Virus genome (UHGV): UHGV-0559702
Reading direction: 5' to 3' (one strand)
DNA from: a virus
Length of the DNA: 50,417 nt
Positions 1 to 50,417 of this stretch are shown here, piece after piece. The notes under the pieces were generated by a model that saw nothing but the letters and a program-made list of their open reading frames with translations, had not been told where the DNA came from and ran no database searches. The number at the start of each line of letters is the position of its first letter. The first letter of the stretch is position 1. Both the position numbers and the translations under genes were made by a program.

Positions 1-528
1 CGCAGCGTATCCTAGATTCTGAGGGTTTGCCCCGCCCAAAGCGAGATGTGCCCGTCGAATTTTGATACCTTCCTTCTTTTTTGAAAAGACATCTTGATTA
101 TGCCTTGTAACGGCTCCTAACAGCAAAACGGAAAGTCCAATGGAGGGGAGGGGAGACAAAGAGACATACCCAGAGGGTACGTCTTTAGGGATGAGCAGTT
201 GACGAATCCGTCTGTCGACAGACTCTGTTTTTCTGGCAAATCCTGTTTTACGGATTTTCTTCAATGCCGCCTCTGTATCTGCTTTCTCTCCTTCCTCCCC
301 CTCTTCGAGTGTCTTGTATAGAGCACTTACCTTTCCCACATCCTTGGCCCCGTTTGCCGTATCCAGCGGCATAGAAATCCCTGCCGCAAGACATGTCCTC
401 GTGGACAGGTACGGAAGGGAGAGCGCGGCACCCGACGACAAGCGAATACCGACGCTGGAATTCGAGTTCACCAGCTTTGAACTGAAATCGATAAGATCGT
501 CGATGTCTATCTTAGTCTTCCTCTTCAT
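1..528 (-). CDS. Hypothetical protein, 3'-truncated by the window start (N-terminal 176 aa). In frame with 49554..50417 if the contig is circular.
   Basis: ATG at 528..526 with a GGAGG RBS 7 nt upstream. The open frame runs with no stop to position 1, which falls exactly on a codon boundary. Its start overlaps the stop of the upstream gene by 17 nt. Confidence 0.45.
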   Translation of the reverse strand, partial: MKRKTKIDIDDLIDFSSKLVNSNSSVGIRLSSGAALSLPYLSTRTCLAAGISMPLDTANGAKDVGKVSALYKTLEEGEEGEKADTEAALKKIRKTGFARKTESVDRRIRQLLIPKDVPSGYVSLSPLPSIGLSVLLLGAVTRHNQDVFSKKKEGIKIRRAHLALGGANPQNLGYAA

Positions 529-1012
529 CGTCTGCCTCCGTTGCCGCTTCCAGCGTTATGAACTCGGGAAGAACCGCAATGCTGCCGCATTCGTCATCCA
601 TCTCCACAGCTTTAAATCCAAGCTTACGGGCAAAGGCGATCCGCATGGCCTGAGCCTCCCAACTTGCGTCATCGTCGTCCATGTTGAGGAGGTTTACCCA
701 GTCTTCATCTTGATAACCAATTTTCTCTTCAACCACGGCATACCAGCAGAGATCAAAATACTTTTCGTCTATACCGCGCTCTGCCATAACTTCACGTAGA
801 GCCGTTCCAGCAGCGCCATCTTCAAGATACGGGAGATCCTCGTTCAAGAAGATGTCCTTGATGTCTATTTCGCACTGGTAGACGTAATTTCCGTATTCCT
901 TTGCATGTCCGTAAGTACGGGCAAAGAACACCGCGCCGAAGTTATACCCTAACCCTGTTCCTGAGTTAGAGATAGCCAGATGTTCAATCATGCTTCCGTG
1001 GTATAGCTTCAT
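512..1012 (-). CDS. PARP/Tpt1-like (H-Y-E clade) ADP-ribosyltransferase-fold protein, 166 aa, acidic C-terminal tail
   Basis: AAAGGAG RBS before the ATG at 1012. The N-terminus reads MKLYHGS and is followed by GYNFGAVFFA. These resemble the HG[ST] and aromatic-GxG-[IV]-[YF]-F-A NAD-binding motifs of PARP and Tpt1/KptA ART folds. The C-terminus is EAATEADDEEED. The family call comes from motifs only. Confidence 0.5.
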   Translation of the reverse strand: MKLYHGSMIEHLAISNSGTGLGYNFGAVFFARTYGHAKEYGNYVYQCEIDIKDIFLNEDLPYLEDGAAGTALREVMAERGIDEKYFDLCWYAVVEEKIGYQDEDWVNLLNMDDDDASWEAQAMRIAFARKLGFKAVEMDDECGSIAVLPEFITLEAATEADDEEED

Positions 1013-1056
1013 GGTGGCTTCTCCTTTACCCTTTCGTTGAAAATACAATAGCACCA

Positions 1057-1089
1057 TTTTTTGAAAAAATAAACAATTTTTTCAAAAAA
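1057..1089 (-). promoter_or_regulatory. Perfect 13-bp inverted repeat (TTTTTTGAAAAAA-N7-TTTTTTCAAAAAA) in the promoter region of the ART-fold gene; operator candidate
   Basis: Seen directly. AT-rich intergenic region between the terminator at 1141-1172 and the RBS at about 1020. Confidence 0.4.
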
Positions 1090-1140
1090 AGTTTTATCTT
1101 TTTTAACTCGTCAGTAACAGAAGGGAGAGGCAGAAAAACA

Positions 1141-1172
1141 AAAAGGGGCGGCTCTTAAAGCCACCCCTTTTC
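1141..1172 (-). terminator. Rho-independent terminator after the DUF1640-like gene
   Basis: GGGGTGGC/GCCGCCCC stem (one G-U pair) followed by a T-run on the minus strand. Confidence 0.5.
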
Positions 1173-1261
1173 TACGATATTCTTTCTTTATTAGAATCCG
1201 AGCCAGCCGAAGCCCTTGGCCATAACGGCGACAAGGGCAAACCCTATGGCGATTTGCCATT

Positions 1262-1507
1262 TCAAAAGATCATACCATACTTGACCTTCAACACTTCAGC
1301 ACGAATTTTTTCGATCTCCGCTTGCACTTTCAGGTCCAATTCCCGAATTTCTTTTTGCAACCGCAGTTCCGTTTCGCGCAGATCTCCCTTGGTGGCACTG
1401 GCGTTCCTTTGACTCTCGTCAAAGCGTTCCAGTACTTCCACGATGGCTTTTGCGGCTTCCTCGCCGACGGCCTTTTCAAGCTTTTTCCCATCATCGAACA
1501 GCAGCAT
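1262..1507 (-). CDS. DUF1640-like coiled-coil protein (81 aa)
   Basis: GGAGGG RBS before the ATG at 1507. The MLLFDDGKKLEKAVGEEAAKAIVEVLERFD... pattern and heptad-rich C-terminus are typical of DUF1640. Confidence 0.55.
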   Translation of the reverse strand: MLLFDDGKKLEKAVGEEAAKAIVEVLERFDESQRNASATKGDLRETELRLQKEIRELDLKVQAEIEKIRAEVLKVKYGMIF

Positions 1508-1562
1508 GGGGGAATCCCTCCGTTGGTGAAGTCTTATATGATTCATGCAGGCTTGCCAAGGA

Positions 1563-2483
1563 TTACCCTAGCATCAACCTGTTTGCCGTCTTCGCGGCAC
1601 GGATGGCAAGACGCATATCATCAAGCGCGGATTCGAGGTTTTGCCGGGCGGTGTAGGTTGGGGCTGTCATGAGCTGGATAAGCGCGTCAACGGGCGTCTT
1701 CCCGGATGGCGATACATGCCGGAGCAGTTCGGGATACGTTCCTTGCGTCACTCGGCGGAAGTCTCGTTCCAGTCCATAAGCGCGGTCGCGGATCAGGACT
1801 GCAAGTTCCATCCAATCCTGTTCGAGCCGTTCAAGCTCCCTCACGCGGTCGCGGTATAGTGACGATGCGACGGGAAGCGCAGGGTACGGAATCGCGGATT
1901 CCGCCGTGGGTATGGCATTGATGGCGCGGACGCGGACGGAAAGCAGGAACTCGCGGGCCTCGGGCATAAGCCTGGCCGGGAGCTGACTGTATTCCGCGAT
2001 GCGGAAGTGGCGGTTGTGCTTCGCCCATATCTCGGCGCGGGCCTTGCCCTGCACGGCTGCGGGGTATGTCGAGAGCTTGGCGTCTACGATGAGCTTGAGC
2101 TCGGCACGTTCCGCCGCACTGATCAGCTCGTCGTTGAGCGTCACGGGTTCGGCAACGGGCACCCTGTCGCCGTACTGTTCAATCACATCCAGCACCCAAC
2201 GGCGGAACGCCTTGGCAATAGGAGTACGCGCTAGCATCGCAACCAAATGGCAGCCCCGAAGGGAAAAGATGCGATTCATAGCGGGTACATCCGTGGTACT
2301 CAAATTGAGAACCACGCTCATATTATTGGAGAATTCATCCTTATGTCGGGCATAGAGCACACCAACCTTGCGGTCGTCGGAATAGCCAAGTGCTTTAGCC
2401 AATTCAGAAGAACGAATCCAGAGACTGTTTTGGTGAGTGACAGGCGTGAAGATAAATTCGTTGAAGATTAGGGCCATTTCCAT
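1563..2483 (-). CDS. BRO-N domain phage antirepressor
   Basis: AGGAG RBS before the ATG at 2483. N-terminal FNEFIFTPVTHQNSLWIRSSELAKALGY Bro-N signature, with a KilA-C/ANT-like C-terminus. Confidence 0.8.
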   Translation of the reverse strand: MEMALIFNEFIFTPVTHQNSLWIRSSELAKALGYSDDRKVGVLYARHKDEFSNNMSVVLNLSTTDVPAMNRIFSLRGCHLVAMLARTPIAKAFRRWVLDVIEQYGDRVPVAEPVTLNDELISAAERAELKLIVDAKLSTYPAAVQGKARAEIWAKHNRHFRIAEYSQLPARLMPEAREFLLSVRVRAINAIPTAESAIPYPALPVASSLYRDRVRELERLEQDWMELAVLIRDRAYGLERDFRRVTQGTYPELLRHVSPSGKTPVDALIQLMTAPTYTARQNLESALDDMRLAIRAAKTANRLMLG

Positions 2484-2834
2484 AATGCAACTCCTACGTT
2501 GTCTGAATTGCACTCTCTGAAATAGAAAGCGCCGGGTGTTCAGAACGGCGTAGGAACCGCTGGCGGCCTTTAGCTTTCGCTTGGACATATCCGCCACACC
2601 CGGCAAACATTGGATGCAATAATAGCCCAAAAGACAGCCAAGAAAAACTCTTGACTTTGGAAAAAGGGCATAAAAAAGCGCCATGCTATCGGGTGGCGTT
2701 TGTCCGCCTACGGGGTTCTGAAGCCCGTGCACAAAAGACAGCACAAAACTCGGAAAATGTAAAGAGAAAAGCAGTGGCATTGCCCGCATCTGGATGTTCT
2801 TCATCATTGGCGGGCAACGCCACGTTGGAAAGTT

Positions 2835-3905
2835 TTACTTGTTATCGTATTTCAAGGCCGTAGCCCGGATTCGATCCGCAAAGGGGATAATATCTTCCAG
2901 TTTTTCGATGTCTTCCTTTGCGTCTTTATTCTCCCCATCAAACAGTCCGACCCTCCACTGTTTTCCGTTGAAATACAGGCGGCACAGAGGCTTGAGCCTG
3001 TTGTCGTCAAGAAGGATGGAGCAGTAGCTGATGCTGTCCCGCATGGCTACGCGGGCCGGATCAACGGTGCCCACCAGAAGCGATTTGACAAGGTAATACG
3101 CCTCTTTTTCTTCCTCGGTGGTGACTATACGCGAATCCAGCTCTTTTCCTTGTGGGGTATCTTCGGACTCTATCTCTACAATTTCCGGTTTCTGCTGCGT
3201 CATGGCATTTTTCAATCGGTCGTTGATGCGGTCATTGATGAACTGGTCAAGCGCAGCGGTAAGGATTGGAGTGAAGCGATCCAGAACATTTTGCGTGATA
3301 CGTCCATCATACGTCTGGCCGATGAAAAAGCGTGCGAAATCTTCATGCGGCTTTTCCATTTGTTCGGACATGAGGCGTTTGAACTCTCGGTTGTACTTGA
3401 GTTCGTTTGCCGCGCTCATGCAGGCATCCCGATCAAACTTGCCTTTTGCCAGTTTGCGCAGTTCCGGGAGTAGCATTTCGTCCATATCGTCAAGGACGAA
3501 CTCCATATATGGCTTGCTGTCCATTTTGTTGGCTGTTTCAAGATCAGAATAGAACCGGTAACGGTTGCCGTCCGTCAGGATGGCAATGGGGGCTTCCGTT
3601 CCGTGGAAGTAAAGCTGTAGCTGGTTGCAGTGCTTCATGTCGAGAGACGTTCCCAAAGCCTTGCATTCCAGAAGAAGGATAGGCTTGCCGTCAACAAGAA
3701 TCGCATAGTCCACGCGGGCGTCTTTATACTCGCCAATAGGGGCTGAAAATTCGGGCACGACTTCCGCAGGATTGAAAACATCGTAACCAAGGGCCGCGAT
3801 GAAGGGCATCACCAAGGCGTTTTTCGTGGCCTCTTCGGTCTTGAGGCTATCTCCCAGATTCTTTACCTTTTTCGACAATTCAGCAATTCTTTCCGAAAAA
3901 TCCAT
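2835..3905 (-). CDS. Stand-alone HsdR_N-domain (type I restriction R-subunit N-terminal, Mrr/PD-(D/E)xK-like) nuclease-domain protein, 356 aa
   Basis: TEEATKNALVMPFIAALGYDVF...VDYAIL...LLLECK matches the HsdR N-terminal nuclease motif. AT-rich relative to the backbone. GGGAGAGAGG RBS. Confidence 0.75.
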   Translation of the reverse strand: MDFSERIAELSKKVKNLGDSLKTEEATKNALVMPFIAALGYDVFNPAEVVPEFSAPIGEYKDARVDYAILVDGKPILLLECKALGTSLDMKHCNQLQLYFHGTEAPIAILTDGNRYRFYSDLETANKMDSKPYMEFVLDDMDEMLLPELRKLAKGKFDRDACMSAANELKYNREFKRLMSEQMEKPHEDFARFFIGQTYDGRITQNVLDRFTPILTAALDQFINDRINDRLKNAMTQQKPEIVEIESEDTPQGKELDSRIVTTEEEKEAYYLVKSLLVGTVDPARVAMRDSISYCSILLDDNRLKPLCRLYFNGKQWRVGLFDGENKDAKEDIEKLEDIIPFADRIRATALKYDNK

Positions 3906-3940
3906 GGTCCTCTCTCCCTGTTCGGATTCAAGTTAATATA

Positions 3941-4540
3941 TTAAGATTTATATATTTTCTTATAGGTTTTCCAAGAATACAGTCCGGAAAGGATAGTGAG
4001 GATTCCCCATAACAAGGCCCCATTCGTATTGGGCGGCGTTTGGAGGGCACAACTCAGCCACAATACGGCTAGCACTACTGTTATCAGCACTCCAATGATA
4101 AGGGCAATTTTTTTAGGGGGCGTCTGAGAACGTTCATGATGTATAAGCGGGTTTGGTTCTCCACGCTCTTGGGCCAATTGGTCATCAAAAAGGTGTGCGC
4201 GGATAACCTCCATCATGGGGCTATTCACCTTTGCCAATGCCTTATTTCCATTTTTGAACTCAATAATGACGGTAGACTCAGTCGTCTTGCCTCCAGCTAC
4301 CGCACCCGCAACCGCTCCGATGCCTCCAAGCAAGACGCCGCCGACAAGTGCGCCTCCCAAAGTTCCGCCGAGCTTTTTGACCGATTCTTCATTGGCTACT
4401 TCGCAAGAGGCAATACTGGAAAGAAAAAGTTCCTTTGCTCCAAACATTTTTGAAGAGCAACGCAACTTGTTTTTATTCTTAATGTAAATATATTCTTCTT
4501 TCCCGTAGTCCCCTGCCAGAAACTTGATGTAGGTAGCCAT
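3941..4540 (-). CDS. Glycine-zipper membrane protein (199 aa) with two C-terminal TM helices
   Basis: GGTLGGALVGGVLLGGIGAVAGAVAGG glycine-zipper. C-terminal hydrophobic helices IALIIGVLITVVLAVLWL and LLWGILTILSGLY. AAGGGGG RBS. A TATAAT element lies upstream. Confidence 0.65.
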   Translation of the reverse strand: MATYIKFLAGDYGKEEYIYIKNKNKLRCSSKMFGAKELFLSSIASCEVANEESVKKLGGTLGGALVGGVLLGGIGAVAGAVAGGKTTESTVIIEFKNGNKALAKVNSPMMEVIRAHLFDDQLAQERGEPNPLIHHERSQTPPKKIALIIGVLITVVLAVLWLSCALQTPPNTNGALLWGILTILSGLYSWKTYKKIYKS

Positions 4541-4643
4541 ACATCATCCCCCTTATTATAGATGAGGCTATCATGGCATAGGCCGTTCCAAAAATCCACC
4601 GCCGCCGCCCTCCGCCCCGAAAGGGGCTTTTCTTTTGCCTGTA

Positions 4644-4661
4644 CGAACCTTGTTCACGGTG
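4644..4661 (+). promoter_or_regulatory. Conserved late-operon motif copy 1 (cGAACCTTGTTCACGGTG), about 55 bp upstream of the BRO gene
   Basis: Four near-identical copies at 4644, 5505, 38847 and 43486. Each lies 50-75 bp upstream of a plus-strand operon start. Confidence 0.55.
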
Positions 4662-4714
4662 TGCCCCCACGCCGCCATGCTGCATCATCTCCAAAACACT
4701 ATGGAGGTGCAGCG

Positions 4715-5503
4715 ATGGAAAATTCCCCCTTGGCTCTTTTCGAGCATGAAAAGTTCGGTTTCCTTCGCGTTGTTGAGCGCAAGGTGCAACCATGGTTCGT
4801 GGCGAAAGACGTGTGCGATATTCTTGAAATGGGCAACCCTCGTTCAAGCCTTGCACTTCTGGATGAGGATGAAAAGGGCGTCCATAGTATGGACACCCCC
4901 GGTGGAAAGCAGGAAATGACAATTATTTCCGAACCGGGCCTGTATTCCCTCATCCTGCGTTCCCGCAAGCCCGAAGCCAAGGCGTTCAAGCGGTGGGTGA
5001 CACATGAGGTCATCCCCTCCATTCGTAAGGTGGGCGGTTACCTGATAGCCAAGCCGGACGATACGCCCGAAGCCATCCTTGCCCGCGCCGTGCTGGTCGC
5101 GCAGGACACCATCAGGCGCATCGAAGCCGAGCGCGACGAGGCTATCCGCACCAAGGCCGAAATCGGTTCACGCCGCGAGGCCACCGCGATGGCAACCGCC
5201 TCCGCAGCCGTCCGCAAGGCTGCGGCTCTTGAGAACGAACTTGGGCGGGGCAGGGACTACAAGTCCGTGAAGGGCATCCCGTGGTTCCTTGACGTCTTCG
5301 CAGATACGCCAGCCGCGTACTCCGTCGCGGGACGCAAGCTTTCCGATATGTCCCGCCGTATGGATTACGAAATCCGGGAAATCGAGGACAGCCGTTTCGG
5401 GAGCGTGAAGGCGTACCACGTCGACGTGATCGAAGCCTTCCGGCTGGCCCTGAAAAACGACCTGAACATGCTGGGCAAGTACCGCCTTCGCCGTGCTGCA
5501 TAG
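4715..5503 (+). CDS. BRO-N domain phage antirepressor (second copy)
   Basis: GGAGG RBS. FEHEKFGFLRVVERKVQPWFVAKDVCDILE...KAFKRWVTHEVIPSIRKVGGY Bro-N signature. Confidence 0.8.
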   Translation: MENSPLALFEHEKFGFLRVVERKVQPWFVAKDVCDILEMGNPRSSLALLDEDEKGVHSMDTPGGKQEMTIISEPGLYSLILRSRKPEAKAFKRWVTHEVIPSIRKVGGYLIAKPDDTPEAILARAVLVAQDTIRRIEAERDEAIRTKAEIGSRREATAMATASAAVRKAAALENELGRGRDYKSVKGIPWFLDVFADTPAAYSVAGRKLSDMSRRMDYEIREIEDSRFGSVKAYHVDVIEAFRLALKNDLNMLGKYRLRRAA

Positions 5504-20163: not shown

Positions 20164-21192
20164 TCAATCGCCTTCATGCGTGATTCCATGCGTGATGTCC
20201 TCAAAAATGCCTGCGGCCTCCCTGTCGACGCCAAGGTCATGCAGATAGATTTCTGTGGTGCGGATGTTCATGTGTCCAAGCACCTTTTGCGCCCGGCGCG
20301 GGTCTTTAAGATGGGTAGCCATGAAGTGGCGCAGGCTGTGGGCCGCAAAGAACGGTATGCCCGCCTTCTCGCAAAGGCGTTTCATAAGGTACTTGATGCG
20401 CGGCGTGGTGCGCGGATAGGGAAGACCCGTTCCGGGGGCTTCAAAAACGAACCGCTCATTTTCGCGTAAGGCATAGAGACGGAACAGCACGCTATATAAT
20501 GTAGGGCTCATGGCAATCGTGCGTGATTCCCGGTTCCCGCCCCGGCGTTTGCTTGTCCACAGCCGGACGGTCCTGTTTTCCAGATCGACATCTTCCCACG
20601 CCATTTCGCGGATTTCGGAAATGCGCCCCGCCGTATGGAGAAGGCAGAGCAGGAAATCCCGCTCGAACCCTGTAGCGCAGGACATGAGCTTGGCAACGTC
20701 ACCTTTCGGTGGAATATATTTCACGGCCTGCACTGTGGCGAAAGGCTCAGTCTGGCGCGCAATATTGACCGGAACGTACCCCTCTCGTGCGGCCCATGAG
20801 TAAAGCGCTGATAACTCGATACGGTACTTGTTCGCGGATTTTGCGCTCACGGCTTCCTTGGCTGCTTCAAGAAAGGCTTCCAGATCGTTTTTTGTGATAG
20901 TTGAGAATTCGGTTTTAGGTCCGATGAACTTATTTAGCTTTCGAAGAACGCTTTTCTTATAGATGAGTGTGTTCTTCTTGCATCTTCCTTCGCGTTTTTG
21001 AAGATAGAGAGCCGAAACCTCATACAAGGCCAAGCGTTTGGGCATAGTTGCGGATTTCTTGACGATTGATTCCCATTCGAGCGCCTTCATCTTGCTCAAG
21101 AATCCGCCCCGGTACGCGATTCTTTGCCCTCCTTCGAACACTTCCGCCGCGTATCGCATACCATTCTTCGTCTTGTATTTCCTGATGGACAT
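20164..21192 (-). CDS. int: Tyrosine-type phage integrase
   Basis: 342 aa. C-terminal catalytic motifs (...HSLRHFMATHL...GHMNIRTTEIYLH). AAAGAGG RBS. Adjacent to the tRNA-derived att core. Confidence 0.9.
   Translation of the reverse strand: MSIRKYKTKNGMRYAAEVFEGGQRIAYRGGFLSKMKALEWESIVKKSATMPKRLALYEVSALYLQKREGRCKKNTLIYKKSVLRKLNKFIGPKTEFSTITKNDLEAFLEAAKEAVSAKSANKYRIELSALYSWAAREGYVPVNIARQTEPFATVQAVKYIPPKGDVAKLMSCATGFERDFLLCLLHTAGRISEIREMAWEDVDLENRTVRLWTSKRRGGNRESRTIAMSPTLYSVLFRLYALRENERFVFEAPGTGLPYPRTTPRIKYLMKRLCEKAGIPFFAAHSLRHFMATHLKDPRRAQKVLGHMNIRTTEIYLHDLGVDREAAGIFEDITHGITHEGD
20180..20198 (+). promoter_or_regulatory. Second pair of CGTGAT(T/G) direct repeats (P' arm-type site candidates), inside the int 3' end
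   Basis: Same repeat, spacing and orientation as 19948-19966. Confidence 0.4.
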
Positions 21193-49287: not shown

Positions 49288-49326
49288 AAAGCCCCAACCG
49301 CCTGTTTAACGGTTGGGGCTTTCTTT
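49288..49326. terminator. Bidirectional rho-independent terminator (perfect 13-bp stem)
   Basis: AAAGCCCCAACCG-cctgtttaa-CGGTTGGGGCTTT followed by TCTTT. Lies between the convergent capsid and RHH genes. Confidence 0.7.
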
Positions 49327-49339
49327 ACGTAGTCAGGCG

Positions 49340-49561
49340 TCATTTTCCAAGCTGCTGTATATTTGCGTCCAGCCACATCTCGACTGCTTCCCGTACTACC
49401 TGTGAGCGTAGGATACCCCTATCCGTACATACATCGTTCAGCCGTTCCCAGACATGATCCGGCATAGATACAGTCTTTACTGTTGCACGATTTTCAACCT
49501 TTTTTTTACGTCCAGATCCTTTACGGCGTCCACCCTGCTTTTTTTCTTGTGCATCATTCAT
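49340..49561 (-). CDS. Ribbon-helix-helix (CopG/Arc-like) DNA-binding protein
   Basis: ATVKTVSMPDHVWERLNDVCTDRGILRSQVVREAV RHH pattern. Overlaps the upstream ORF by 8 nt. Confidence 0.55.
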   Translation of the reverse strand: MNDAQEKKQGGRRKGSGRKKKVENRATVKTVSMPDHVWERLNDVCTDRGILRSQVVREAVEMWLDANIQQLGK

Positions 49562-50417
49562 TTGTTGAATCTCCCCTCATCAAAAAGCTATCTTCTTCCC
49601 ACTGGCTGCGCCAGAAATAGCCTTTCACCCTCTTTTCAGTAGAGACGTATTCTGTAATGCCGATCAGCGGCTCGGCAAAGGCATGAAGATGTCCGTCCCG
49701 TGCCCCTCCGCGAACTTGAAAGTCTGTGATTGCTGAAAAACCGATATTCGTTGCGGACAGCCATTTTCCGCTGTACGTTCCTATCGCGGTTACAAGCTGT
49801 TCAATGGGGTTTCCAGGGCTCATAACGTCGCGCCGATCCAAAACAACTTTCCCGGCGGGAATGCACTCTAGAAGCGTAGAGAGGTCATCATGCAAAGCCG
49901 GGGCGTCGTATGAAGTGATCAGCCCACCGGAGAACTTTCCGAAGTTCAAGAAAAGATCCACGGCGTTCGGTACGGAATGCAGGGCTTCCGACAGTTCAAA
50001 GATAAGGCTTACCCGTATATGCCCCGTTGCACCGGGCTGCAAAGAGAGATGTGTGGAGCCTTTTGCGTAGTCGCTCCCGTTACGGGATTTTTCAAAAGTA
50101 AAAGCCGCTCCTAATCTTTGGCTAGGCTCGAAAATAGCGGTTTCATGCTCCCCAAGGGGTTCGATGCTATGCACAACAAGGCATACTCCGGTAACTTTGG
50201 GACCATGCATCTCGCGCTCCAGTGCATGTCCCATCCCCCATGCTGCAAAGAGGGGCGCGCCGTTGAGCATAGTATAATTCGTCAAGATGTTTGCCGTTTG
50301 TACAAAGAGATTGGAAAGGATCAGGTAAGTTCCCTTTCCTGACGCCTGACGGCTGGCATTTCCGCGCACGGATTTGGGTGTAGAAAGAAAAACAGGATAT
50401 TGTATCGCCTTTTTGGA
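49554..50417 (-). CDS. Hypothetical protein, 5'-truncated by the window end (at least 288 aa). Continuous in frame with 1..528 if the contig is circular.
   Basis: The open frame runs without a stop to the last base of the window. The window end is a codon boundary. Confidence 0.5.
   Translation of the reverse strand, partial: SKKAIQYPVFLSTPKSVRGNASRQASGKGTYLILSNLFVQTANILTNYTMLNGAPLFAAWGMGHALEREMHGPKVTGVCLVVHSIEPLGEHETAIFEPSQRLGAAFTFEKSRNGSDYAKGSTHLSLQPGATGHIRVSLIFELSEALHSVPNAVDLFLNFGKFSGGLITSYDAPALHDDLSTLLECIPAGKVVLDRRDVMSPGNPIEQLVTAIGTYSGKWLSATNIGFSAITDFQVRGGARDGHLHAFAEPLIGITEYVSTEKRVKGYFWRSQWEEDSFLMRGDSTNE

Follow-up and report, generated by a model that had tools for sequence, protein, structure and literature searches.

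Here we show that two adjacent genes on the minus strand of the virus genome UHGV-0559702, encoding a membrane protein of 199 amino acids (aa; 3941..4540) and a stand-alone HsdR_N nuclease of 356 aa (2835..3905), are new members of known, functionally uncharacterised kinds, and that the nuclease belongs to a very large cross-phylum family of autonomous single proteins that have neither ATPase nor methyltransferase and no conserved partner gene. The window, by which we mean the whole 50,417-nt stretch analysed, belongs to a temperate, E217-like tailed phage of Bilophila wadsworthia. A first-pass annotation had placed the two same-strand open reading frames (ORFs) exactly and had read them as a new system in which a membrane effector is paired with a nuclease, a proposal that is not supported by the distribution of the two gene families. 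On balance, we favour a reading in which they are adjacent and functionally separable cargo genes, the nuclease serving lysogen immunity and the membrane protein acting as an independent envelope factor. We demonstrate the domain anatomy, the intactness of the catalytic residues, the size of the family, its genomic contexts, the separability of the genes and the dispensability of the cassette; these structural and distributional parts of the picture are much firmer than the functional ones. The value of the analysis lies in pointing to a widespread, repressor-linked nuclease family rather than in this locus as such.

An autonomous nuclease with an intact catalytic core

The 356-aa protein carries the HsdR N-terminal PD-(D/E)xK domain that had been recognised at first sight, with matches to HSDR_N (50.4 bits, cutoff 25.1) and HSDR_N_2 (33.1 bits, cutoff 25) that both exceed the Pfam gathering thresholds. 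It also matches phrog_4225 ("endonuclease") over its full length (E 3.8e-114, residues 1-354 to profile positions 2-355 of 357). All 47 homologues compared, which are 47-81% identical, keep E52, D66, E80 and K82 as well as Q95 and Y99 without exception, and the active site is therefore considered intact.

The AlphaFold2 (AF2) model of the nuclease (predicted local distance difference test score, pLDDT, 90) resolves into four parts. An N-terminal helix and the PD-(D/E)xK core, with the four catalytic residues and the Q95..Y99 motif, occupy codons 1-150 (3456..3905, minus strand), and the restriction-endonuclease-like fold of this domain agrees with solved HsdR-type nuclease domains. It is followed by a helical bundle (codons 159-237; 3195..3431, minus strand) resembling the post-nuclease helical connector of type IIG/IIL enzymes, by a disordered linker (aa 239-257) and by a C-terminal alpha-beta5-alpha domain (codons 259-356, modelled fold at 264-355; 2838..3131, minus strand) in which E266, D290, R309, F312 and N313 are invariant. 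We infer that this last domain is a substrate-recognition (DNA-binding) module. A Pfam scan of the isolated middle and C-terminal domains at E<=10 gave nothing, neither the full nuclease nor a profile of its C-terminal domain retrieved anything meaningful from PDB sequences, and NCBIfam gave no match to the nuclease.

The family is very large, with more than 6,200 homologous clusters at 90% identity, most of them of 350-380 aa, which is the full-length size. A profile of the C-terminal domain collected 1,806 representatives of 50%-identity clusters, its best matches being mostly full-length proteins of the same architecture, or fragments. Some of the short proteins that bear this domain may be gene fragments. 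In a few others (P0153, P0200, P0281 and P0240) the C-terminal domain is followed by a further domain, either SeqA_C-like at a borderline 20-25 bits or, in one 524-aa protein, TerD (E 1e-71). Related genes in E. coli prophages are labelled "type I restriction endonuclease" by PGAP.

That label does not describe the window nuclease, which, unlike the type I HsdR subunit of EcoR124I, has no superfamily 2 (SF2) helicase/translocase and no hsdM or hsdS neighbours; because motor and M/S partners are both absent, it is not a type I HsdR. Docking of the solitary nuclease onto host type I M2S complexes was also considered and was dropped for lack of any evidence. Compared with type IIG/IIL enzymes (BpuSI, DrdV/MmeI-like), the protein lacks a fused methyltransferase (MTase) and a target recognition domain (TRD), and it is not a type IIG enzyme because it has no MTase. 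The place of translocase, MTase and TRD is taken by a domain of ~95 aa that belongs to no Pfam family. The earlier statement that the nuclease has no helicase or methylase partner thus holds: Pfam detected neither a helicase nor a methyltransferase domain in the protein, and there was no DNA methyltransferase match among the ten largest non-structural ORFs of the phage, the small ORFs not all having been scanned.

Scanning both proteins and four neighbours against PADLOC-DB v2.0.0 gave no system match, in agreement with the earlier remark that no named system fits. The only PADLOC matches were two marginal ones, both of the nuclease to nuclease regions of restriction-modification (RM) enzymes (E ~1e-3, 15 bits), and none was obtained for the membrane protein; the match to REase_MTase_IIG covers the nuclease part only (14.9 bits, residues 26-145). 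A candidate relative of the present nuclease is the single-gene DefenseFinder system "FS_HsdR_like", to judge by its name a stand-alone protein defined by an HsdR-type domain alone; it was reportedly described by Fillol-Salom et al. (2022, Cell 185:3248) from phage-inducible chromosomal islands (PICIs) and is said to block phage. In contrast to that PICI system, the E. coli relatives of the window nuclease examined here sit in prophages.

The membrane protein and its separability from the nuclease

In the 199-aa protein, a small protein of the inner membrane, a glycine-zipper helical hairpin (about aa 51-85) splits a PH-like beta-sandwich into two stretches (aa 1-48 and 88-125); a linker and two transmembrane (TM) helices, at residues 143-165 and 172-197, follow. 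The glycine zipper itself spans residues 57-85, so that both the zipper and the pair of C-terminal TM helices read from the sequence at the outset are present. The AF2 model shows the same succession of strands, Gly-rich helical hairpin (residues 51-80), more strands, a helix and two TM helices, and a fold search with the protein returns PH domains. The protein fits Pfam PF27000 (PH_gly_zipper), a family without assigned function, in that homologues of at least 81% identity, as well as more distant ones, carry a precomputed PF27000 match. Among PHROG families, phrog_20920 matches residues 5-117 and phrog_888 is also related. A search of NCBIfam gave sub-threshold noise only, and a tblastn search of 50,697 GenBank phages gave no match. 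By the positive-inside rule, the KK and KTYKK flanks of the TM helices would place both ends of the protein in the cytoplasm.

Conservation is concentrated in an N-terminal core of 118 residues, and the tail is modular. The tail module (3941..4120, minus strand) is swapped among near-identical phages, in which forms of 199, 187 and 330 aa (P0128 and P0129 among the proteins concerned) stand beside nucleases of 94-99% identity; in P0137 and P0138 the same TM hairpin is found on an unrelated N-terminus (PF14020). Such swapping points to recombination as the driver of diversity in the membrane or extracytoplasmic portion. Viral contigs (L121, L123) and metagenome-assembled genomes (MAGs) of Marinobacter, Chthonomonadaceae and Bacteroidetes encode core-only proteins of 117-120 aa, and an Asticcacaulis MAG also contains a match to the core. 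Compared with these other PF27000 members, the window protein adds a C-terminal TM hairpin, which is swapped in sister phages and absent from the 117-aa core-only forms. In two loci, from a Marinobacter MAG (L130, 3531-3983) and a Bacteroidetes MAG (L133, 3323-3931), a membrane-protein gene lies directly 5' of a 117-aa core-only gene, and the TM part may there be supplied in trans.

The membrane-protein gene precedes the nuclease gene on the same strand across a 35-nt spacer (3906..3940, minus strand), which contains a Shine-Dalgarno-like GGGAGAGAGG just 5' of the nuclease ATG. A consensus scan of the spacer found no terminator-like site, so that co-transcription of the two genes is likely. 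The earlier designation of the pair as an operon is accordingly plausible as far as strand and spacing go; it is not established, because consensus promoter and terminator scans yielded nothing convincing and numbers no better than those from shuffled sequence.

The same arrangement, same-strand genes 35 nt apart with no terminator found between them, is what first recommends the idea of a single two-component system, for abortive infection or exclusion, made up of both genes. In one variant, sensing or gating would fall to the membrane protein, for example where DNA enters the cell, and the nuclease would be recruited or activated by it; in the other, the nuclease would be the sensor and the membrane protein the killer. 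Such a system gains further support from about 30 loci of the Bilophila phage group that keep the pair despite three forms of the membrane-protein C-terminal tail, and from a second, diverged pair in L013, another E217-like phage. In that phage the pair occupies a different site, within the baseplate/Dit region: first comes the PH_gly_zipper gene, at 57% identity to that of the window, and after it the nuclease gene, at 40%. This nuclease is of another subclade (best match P0045, 47% identity).

The wider distribution makes a dedicated two-gene system unlikely all the same, each family being found far more often without the other than with it. We surveyed 80 viral loci with nuclease homologues for a PH_gly_zipper gene within 4 kb and found none in 74 of them, one of which (L019) is without upstream sequence. 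Among the 80, the partner occurs only where the nuclease is at least 98% identical, which amounts to one phage group, and never at 76% identity or below; L025-L098 and L001-L004 have no PH_gly_zipper gene near the nuclease. It is likewise absent beside P0003 (81%, L142), P0010 (77%, L138-L141), P0017 (77%, L143), the nuclease of L025 (76%) and the chromosomal P0015 (75%) and P0045 (65%), leaving L013 as the sole pair-bearing exception among the checked homologues of <=81% identity. Apart from L013, every locus with the pair belongs to a single group of close phage relatives, so that these loci amount to one evolutionary event. The check on co-conservation therefore largely fails for the proposed pairing of membrane effector and nuclease, and of the term "two-gene cassette" what stands is the adjacency, not a conserved unit.

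Each gene also occurs intact without the other. In L025, DNA homology to the window is confined to the nuclease ORF (window 3922..2845, from 17 nt before the ATG to 10 nt before the stop), which implies that this ORF moves alone, and P0015 and P0045 are solitary chromosomal nucleases amid housekeeping genes. Conversely, PH_gly_zipper genes without a nuclease were found in at least eight other lineages, including L016, where the gene directly follows an S24 repressor, L121-L124 and L130-L133, and the 117-aa core-only form, with no nuclease in its neighbourhood, occurs in four further phyla or classes. The cleanest case is L107, in which the membrane gene is intact and the stretch corresponding to window 3851..2900 of the nuclease gene is deleted. 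L011 and L012, at first candidates for a membrane gene without a nuclease, were rejected as such: a deletion of window 4186..1773 has fused the PH_gly_zipper N-domain to a BRO-protein C-terminus (protein alignment, blastn). That deletion shows the cassette to be dispensable, but it is not proof that the genes are independent. A toxin-antitoxin reading of the pair was rejected, since each gene is found intact without the other.

Nuclease genes of 76-81% identity in sister E217-like phages and at prophage ends are followed, after 0-3 nt, by genes whose products are 172-233 aa long and carry a signal peptide (L143, 5098-5799; L025, 5098-5796; L142, 5098-5625; L138, 5098-5616), and the L143 protein matches Pfam tRNA_anti-like. 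These proteins may be an alternative envelope-located neighbour of the nuclease. The presence of a secreted tRNA_anti-like protein right behind other Desulfovibrionaceae-phage nucleases, and with it the recurrence of an "envelope protein plus nuclease" theme, is a further point on the side of a two-gene system.

Under the reading of two separable genes that we prefer, the membrane protein is most likely cargo in its own right, a factor that acts at the envelope in the manner of superinfection exclusion, and not a subunit of the nuclease. Its glycine zipper would hold the PH-like domain at the inner leaflet, and its variable tail fits an exclusion factor acting at the envelope.

Repressor-linked placement and a possible role in lysogen immunity

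The genomic contexts of the nuclease family bear most directly on its function. The 66 distinct genes found next upstream in viral contigs include 22 that match Peptidase_S24, 20 that match HTH_3 and three that match Peptidase_M78; nearly all of the 66 share the strand of the nuclease gene and stop no more than ~100 nt before its start. The Fusobacterium phage FNU_1P has the gene order repressor CI, nuclease, integrase, and the repressor-nuclease layout recurs in Corynebacterium Juicebox, Enterococcus EG-TP1, Klebsiella KpF5, Streptococcus Javan316 and an E. coli Rac-like prophage (L128; nuclease WP_235399347). Stand-alone HsdR_N nucleases of this family are repeatedly found behind the repressor in temperate phages of Firmicutes, Actinobacteria, Fusobacteria, Bacteroidetes and Proteobacteria. 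Other placements occur: in an E. coli myovirus-type prophage the nuclease gene is inserted within the baseplate module, and in a Porphyromonas phage the homologue adjoins HicAB. Downstream neighbours are heterogeneous and include Abi_2, CAP12/Pycsar TIR, DUF3800 and SNase.

The slot behind the repressor is a classical site of prophage-expressed genes, such as lambda rexAB, Sie and Ltp, and this placement is our main basis for proposing an immunity role expressed in the lysogen. The phage-defence function put forward in the first-pass annotation retains its appeal for the nuclease, whose surroundings (CI-type repressors; Abi_2, TIR, HicAB) are as expected for lysogen immunity, and loses it for the two-gene system. 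Like lambda rexAB, Ltp and Sie2009, members of the nuclease family occupy the slot directly behind a CI-type repressor, on the same strand; rexAB, moreover, pairs a cytoplasmic protein with a membrane protein. Unlike in those systems, the two genes studied here are not co-conserved, show no sequence or fold relation to them, and lie in the window in a head-tail cargo island, not beside the repressor.

A mechanism consistent with these contexts can be outlined. The nuclease would be produced in the lysogen, as the repressor-linked placement of its family suggests; the C-terminal domain would target it to DNA, the presumed substrate; and it would cut incoming foreign DNA, providing a methylase-free, restriction-like immunity. 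Self DNA would presumably be spared because cleavage is limited to a modification or structure absent from host DNA, in the manner of type IV enzymes. McrA of the e14 element is a prophage-carried type IV (modification-dependent) restriction enzyme. With type IV enzymes the window nuclease shares the single polypeptide of nuclease and putative recognition domain, the lack of any cognate methylase among the ORFs scanned and its place as prophage cargo. It differs from McrA in both nuclease fold family and reader domain, and modification dependence is hinted at only by the borderline SeqA_C-like fusions in some relatives (20-25 bits), for which methylation state may matter.

Several points weigh against the combination of lysogen-immunity nuclease and independent envelope factor. 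In the literature we found no functional study or experiment on any member of the nuclease family, the DNA binding and modification dependence of the nuclease are both inferred only, and the model of the membrane protein is of moderate confidence only (pLDDT 66). The neighbouring AcrIF11 and Csy2-like genes of the island (described below) are counter-defence genes and would fit an anti-defence role as well as a defence role. Finally, the second, diverged pairing in L013 exceeds naive chance expectation, which lends some, if low, probability to functional coupling in Bilophila phages. In its specific form, the membrane protein of these phages would position or license the nuclease at DNA entry, the pairing having arisen or been kept in two diverged lineages, with the secreted oligonucleotide/oligosaccharide-binding (OB)-fold proteins encoded behind the nuclease gene of sister phages as alternative envelope partners; we give this scenario a little less credence than the general two-gene system.

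Proximity to counter-defence genes also raises the question of whether the nuclease, or the pair, is itself a phage counter-defence factor that destroys or disables a component of host immunity and is grouped with the anti-CRISPRs of the island. An AcrIF11-family ADP-ribosyltransferase and a 463-aa Cas_Csy2-matching protein with a terminal 73-aa ORF share the island, and in Porphyromonas phages an annotated "acr candidate" is found four genes downstream of the homologue. Most phages, however, place the nuclease gene in the repressor operon with defence-type neighbours instead of in an early anti-defence operon, the solitary copies on bacterial chromosomes are hard to explain in this way, and we know of no anti-defence protein that uses an HsdR_N nuclease; a counter-defence function is therefore improbable in our view.

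Equally doubtful is a nuclease that processes DNA for housekeeping or selfish ends (recombination, degradation of host DNA, homing) with no part in immunity, beside an unrelated and inconsequential membrane protein. PD-(D/E)xK nucleases are indeed common in recombination and repair, and both the ORF-confined homology of L025 and the insertions in tail and baseplate modules resemble mobile nuclease genes. Against this, the gene is dispensable and patchy among near-identical phages, the phage has an ERF recombinase of its own, no flanking target duplication and no intron or intein context was seen, and the conserved post-repressor placement and three-domain architecture across phyla suggest cargo that benefits the host, not a function in replication.

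If the lysogen-immunity reading of the nuclease is right, and it is indeed a methylase-free, ATP-independent immunity nuclease, how the host chromosome is spared becomes a testable question, and the homologues from E. coli prophages are a tractable system in which to address it. For annotation, the outcome is a gut Bilophila phage island that mixes likely defence (the nuclease, perhaps the membrane protein) with counter-defence (AcrIF11, Csy2-like).

The phage and its cargo island

The window encodes a tyrosine integrase (20164..21192), an ERF recombinase and a DnaB helicase alongside E217-type tail and capsid genes. A 463-aa ORF closes once the window end is joined to the window start, and the window is thus taken to be a complete circular or circularly permuted temperate phage genome. 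Among the related contigs is a scaffold of Bilophila wadsworthia ATCC 49260 that holds a near-identical cassette. Both genes lie within a cargo island that is located between the major capsid and first tail genes, is oriented opposite to both modules and varies in gene content among sister phages; together with the integrase, ERF recombinase, DnaB helicase and Bilophila scaffold, this agrees with the earlier view of the genes as accessory cargo of a temperate phage. The GC content of the gene pair (48.2%) is lower than that of the window (56.2%) and of the structural head and tail modules (59-61%). To call the pair an AT-rich and clearly foreign insertion was nonetheless too strong, as the whole island of ~5.6 kb (49300..50417 plus 1..4540) has a GC content of ~50%.

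Genes with a BRO-N domain flank the pair on both sides, as first noted and as Pfam and PHROG matches now show. The rightward one (4715..5503, plus strand), anti-repressor-like, lies on the strand of the tail module and matches Pfam Bro-N (E 1.5e-24) and PHROG anti-repressor families; its probable start is M52 of a 313-aa ORF (4562..5503), homologues being called at 262-267 aa. The second (1563..2492, minus strand; Pfam Bro-N E 4.4e-8; phrog_2127 E 2.6e-36) follows the nuclease gene after a gap of ~340 nt, with a probable start at MEMALIF... giving 309 aa, as in the L005 gene call.

About 1.8 kb downstream of the gene pair, on the same strand, a 181-aa ORF (512..1057, minus strand) encodes an AcrIF11-family anti-CRISPR ADP-ribosyltransferase (NCBIfam NF052490, E 1.4e-30, 107 bits, cutoff 50). 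Its end is overlapped by the 463-aa ORF (49554..50417 joined to 1..528, minus strand), which matches Pfam Cas_Csy2 over residues 208-375 (E 1.5e-10, 41 bits) and, by this resemblance, may encode a phage-borne mimic of a type I-F Cascade subunit. The last gene of the string, a 73-aa ORF (49340..49561, minus strand) with no Pfam match, might be an Aca-type regulator. Upstream of the AcrIF11 gene is a 94-aa coiled-coil ORF (1262..1546, minus strand) whose homologues show a weak CCDC90-like match; the two are separated by a strong terminator-like hairpin (1140..1172, minus strand; a 15-bp stem followed by a T run), an indication that transcription of the island is divided among two or more units.

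The gap that separates the nuclease gene from the BRO-N gene downstream of it contains an 84-nt element (2522..2605, minus strand) predicted to fold into a three-way junction (minimum free energy -35.8 kcal/mol, z -3.2). Its end-to-end alignment with the Rfam family sRNA-Xcc1 (RF02221) scores 29.4 bits, below the gathering score of 53, and the element may be a chance match or a distant relative.

On the other side of the pair, the membrane-protein gene and the rightward BRO-N gene diverge from an intergenic region (4541..4714) that is presumed to contain the promoter of the leftward cargo genes. A consensus scan of this region found no -35/-10 pair; a TATAAT box is present beside the ribosome-binding site. 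The region also contains a perfect hairpin, GCCCCGAAAGGGGC (GCCCC-GAAA-GGGGC), at 4614..4627, where a terminator would be unexpected, and the hairpin might therefore be an operator or an RNA element.

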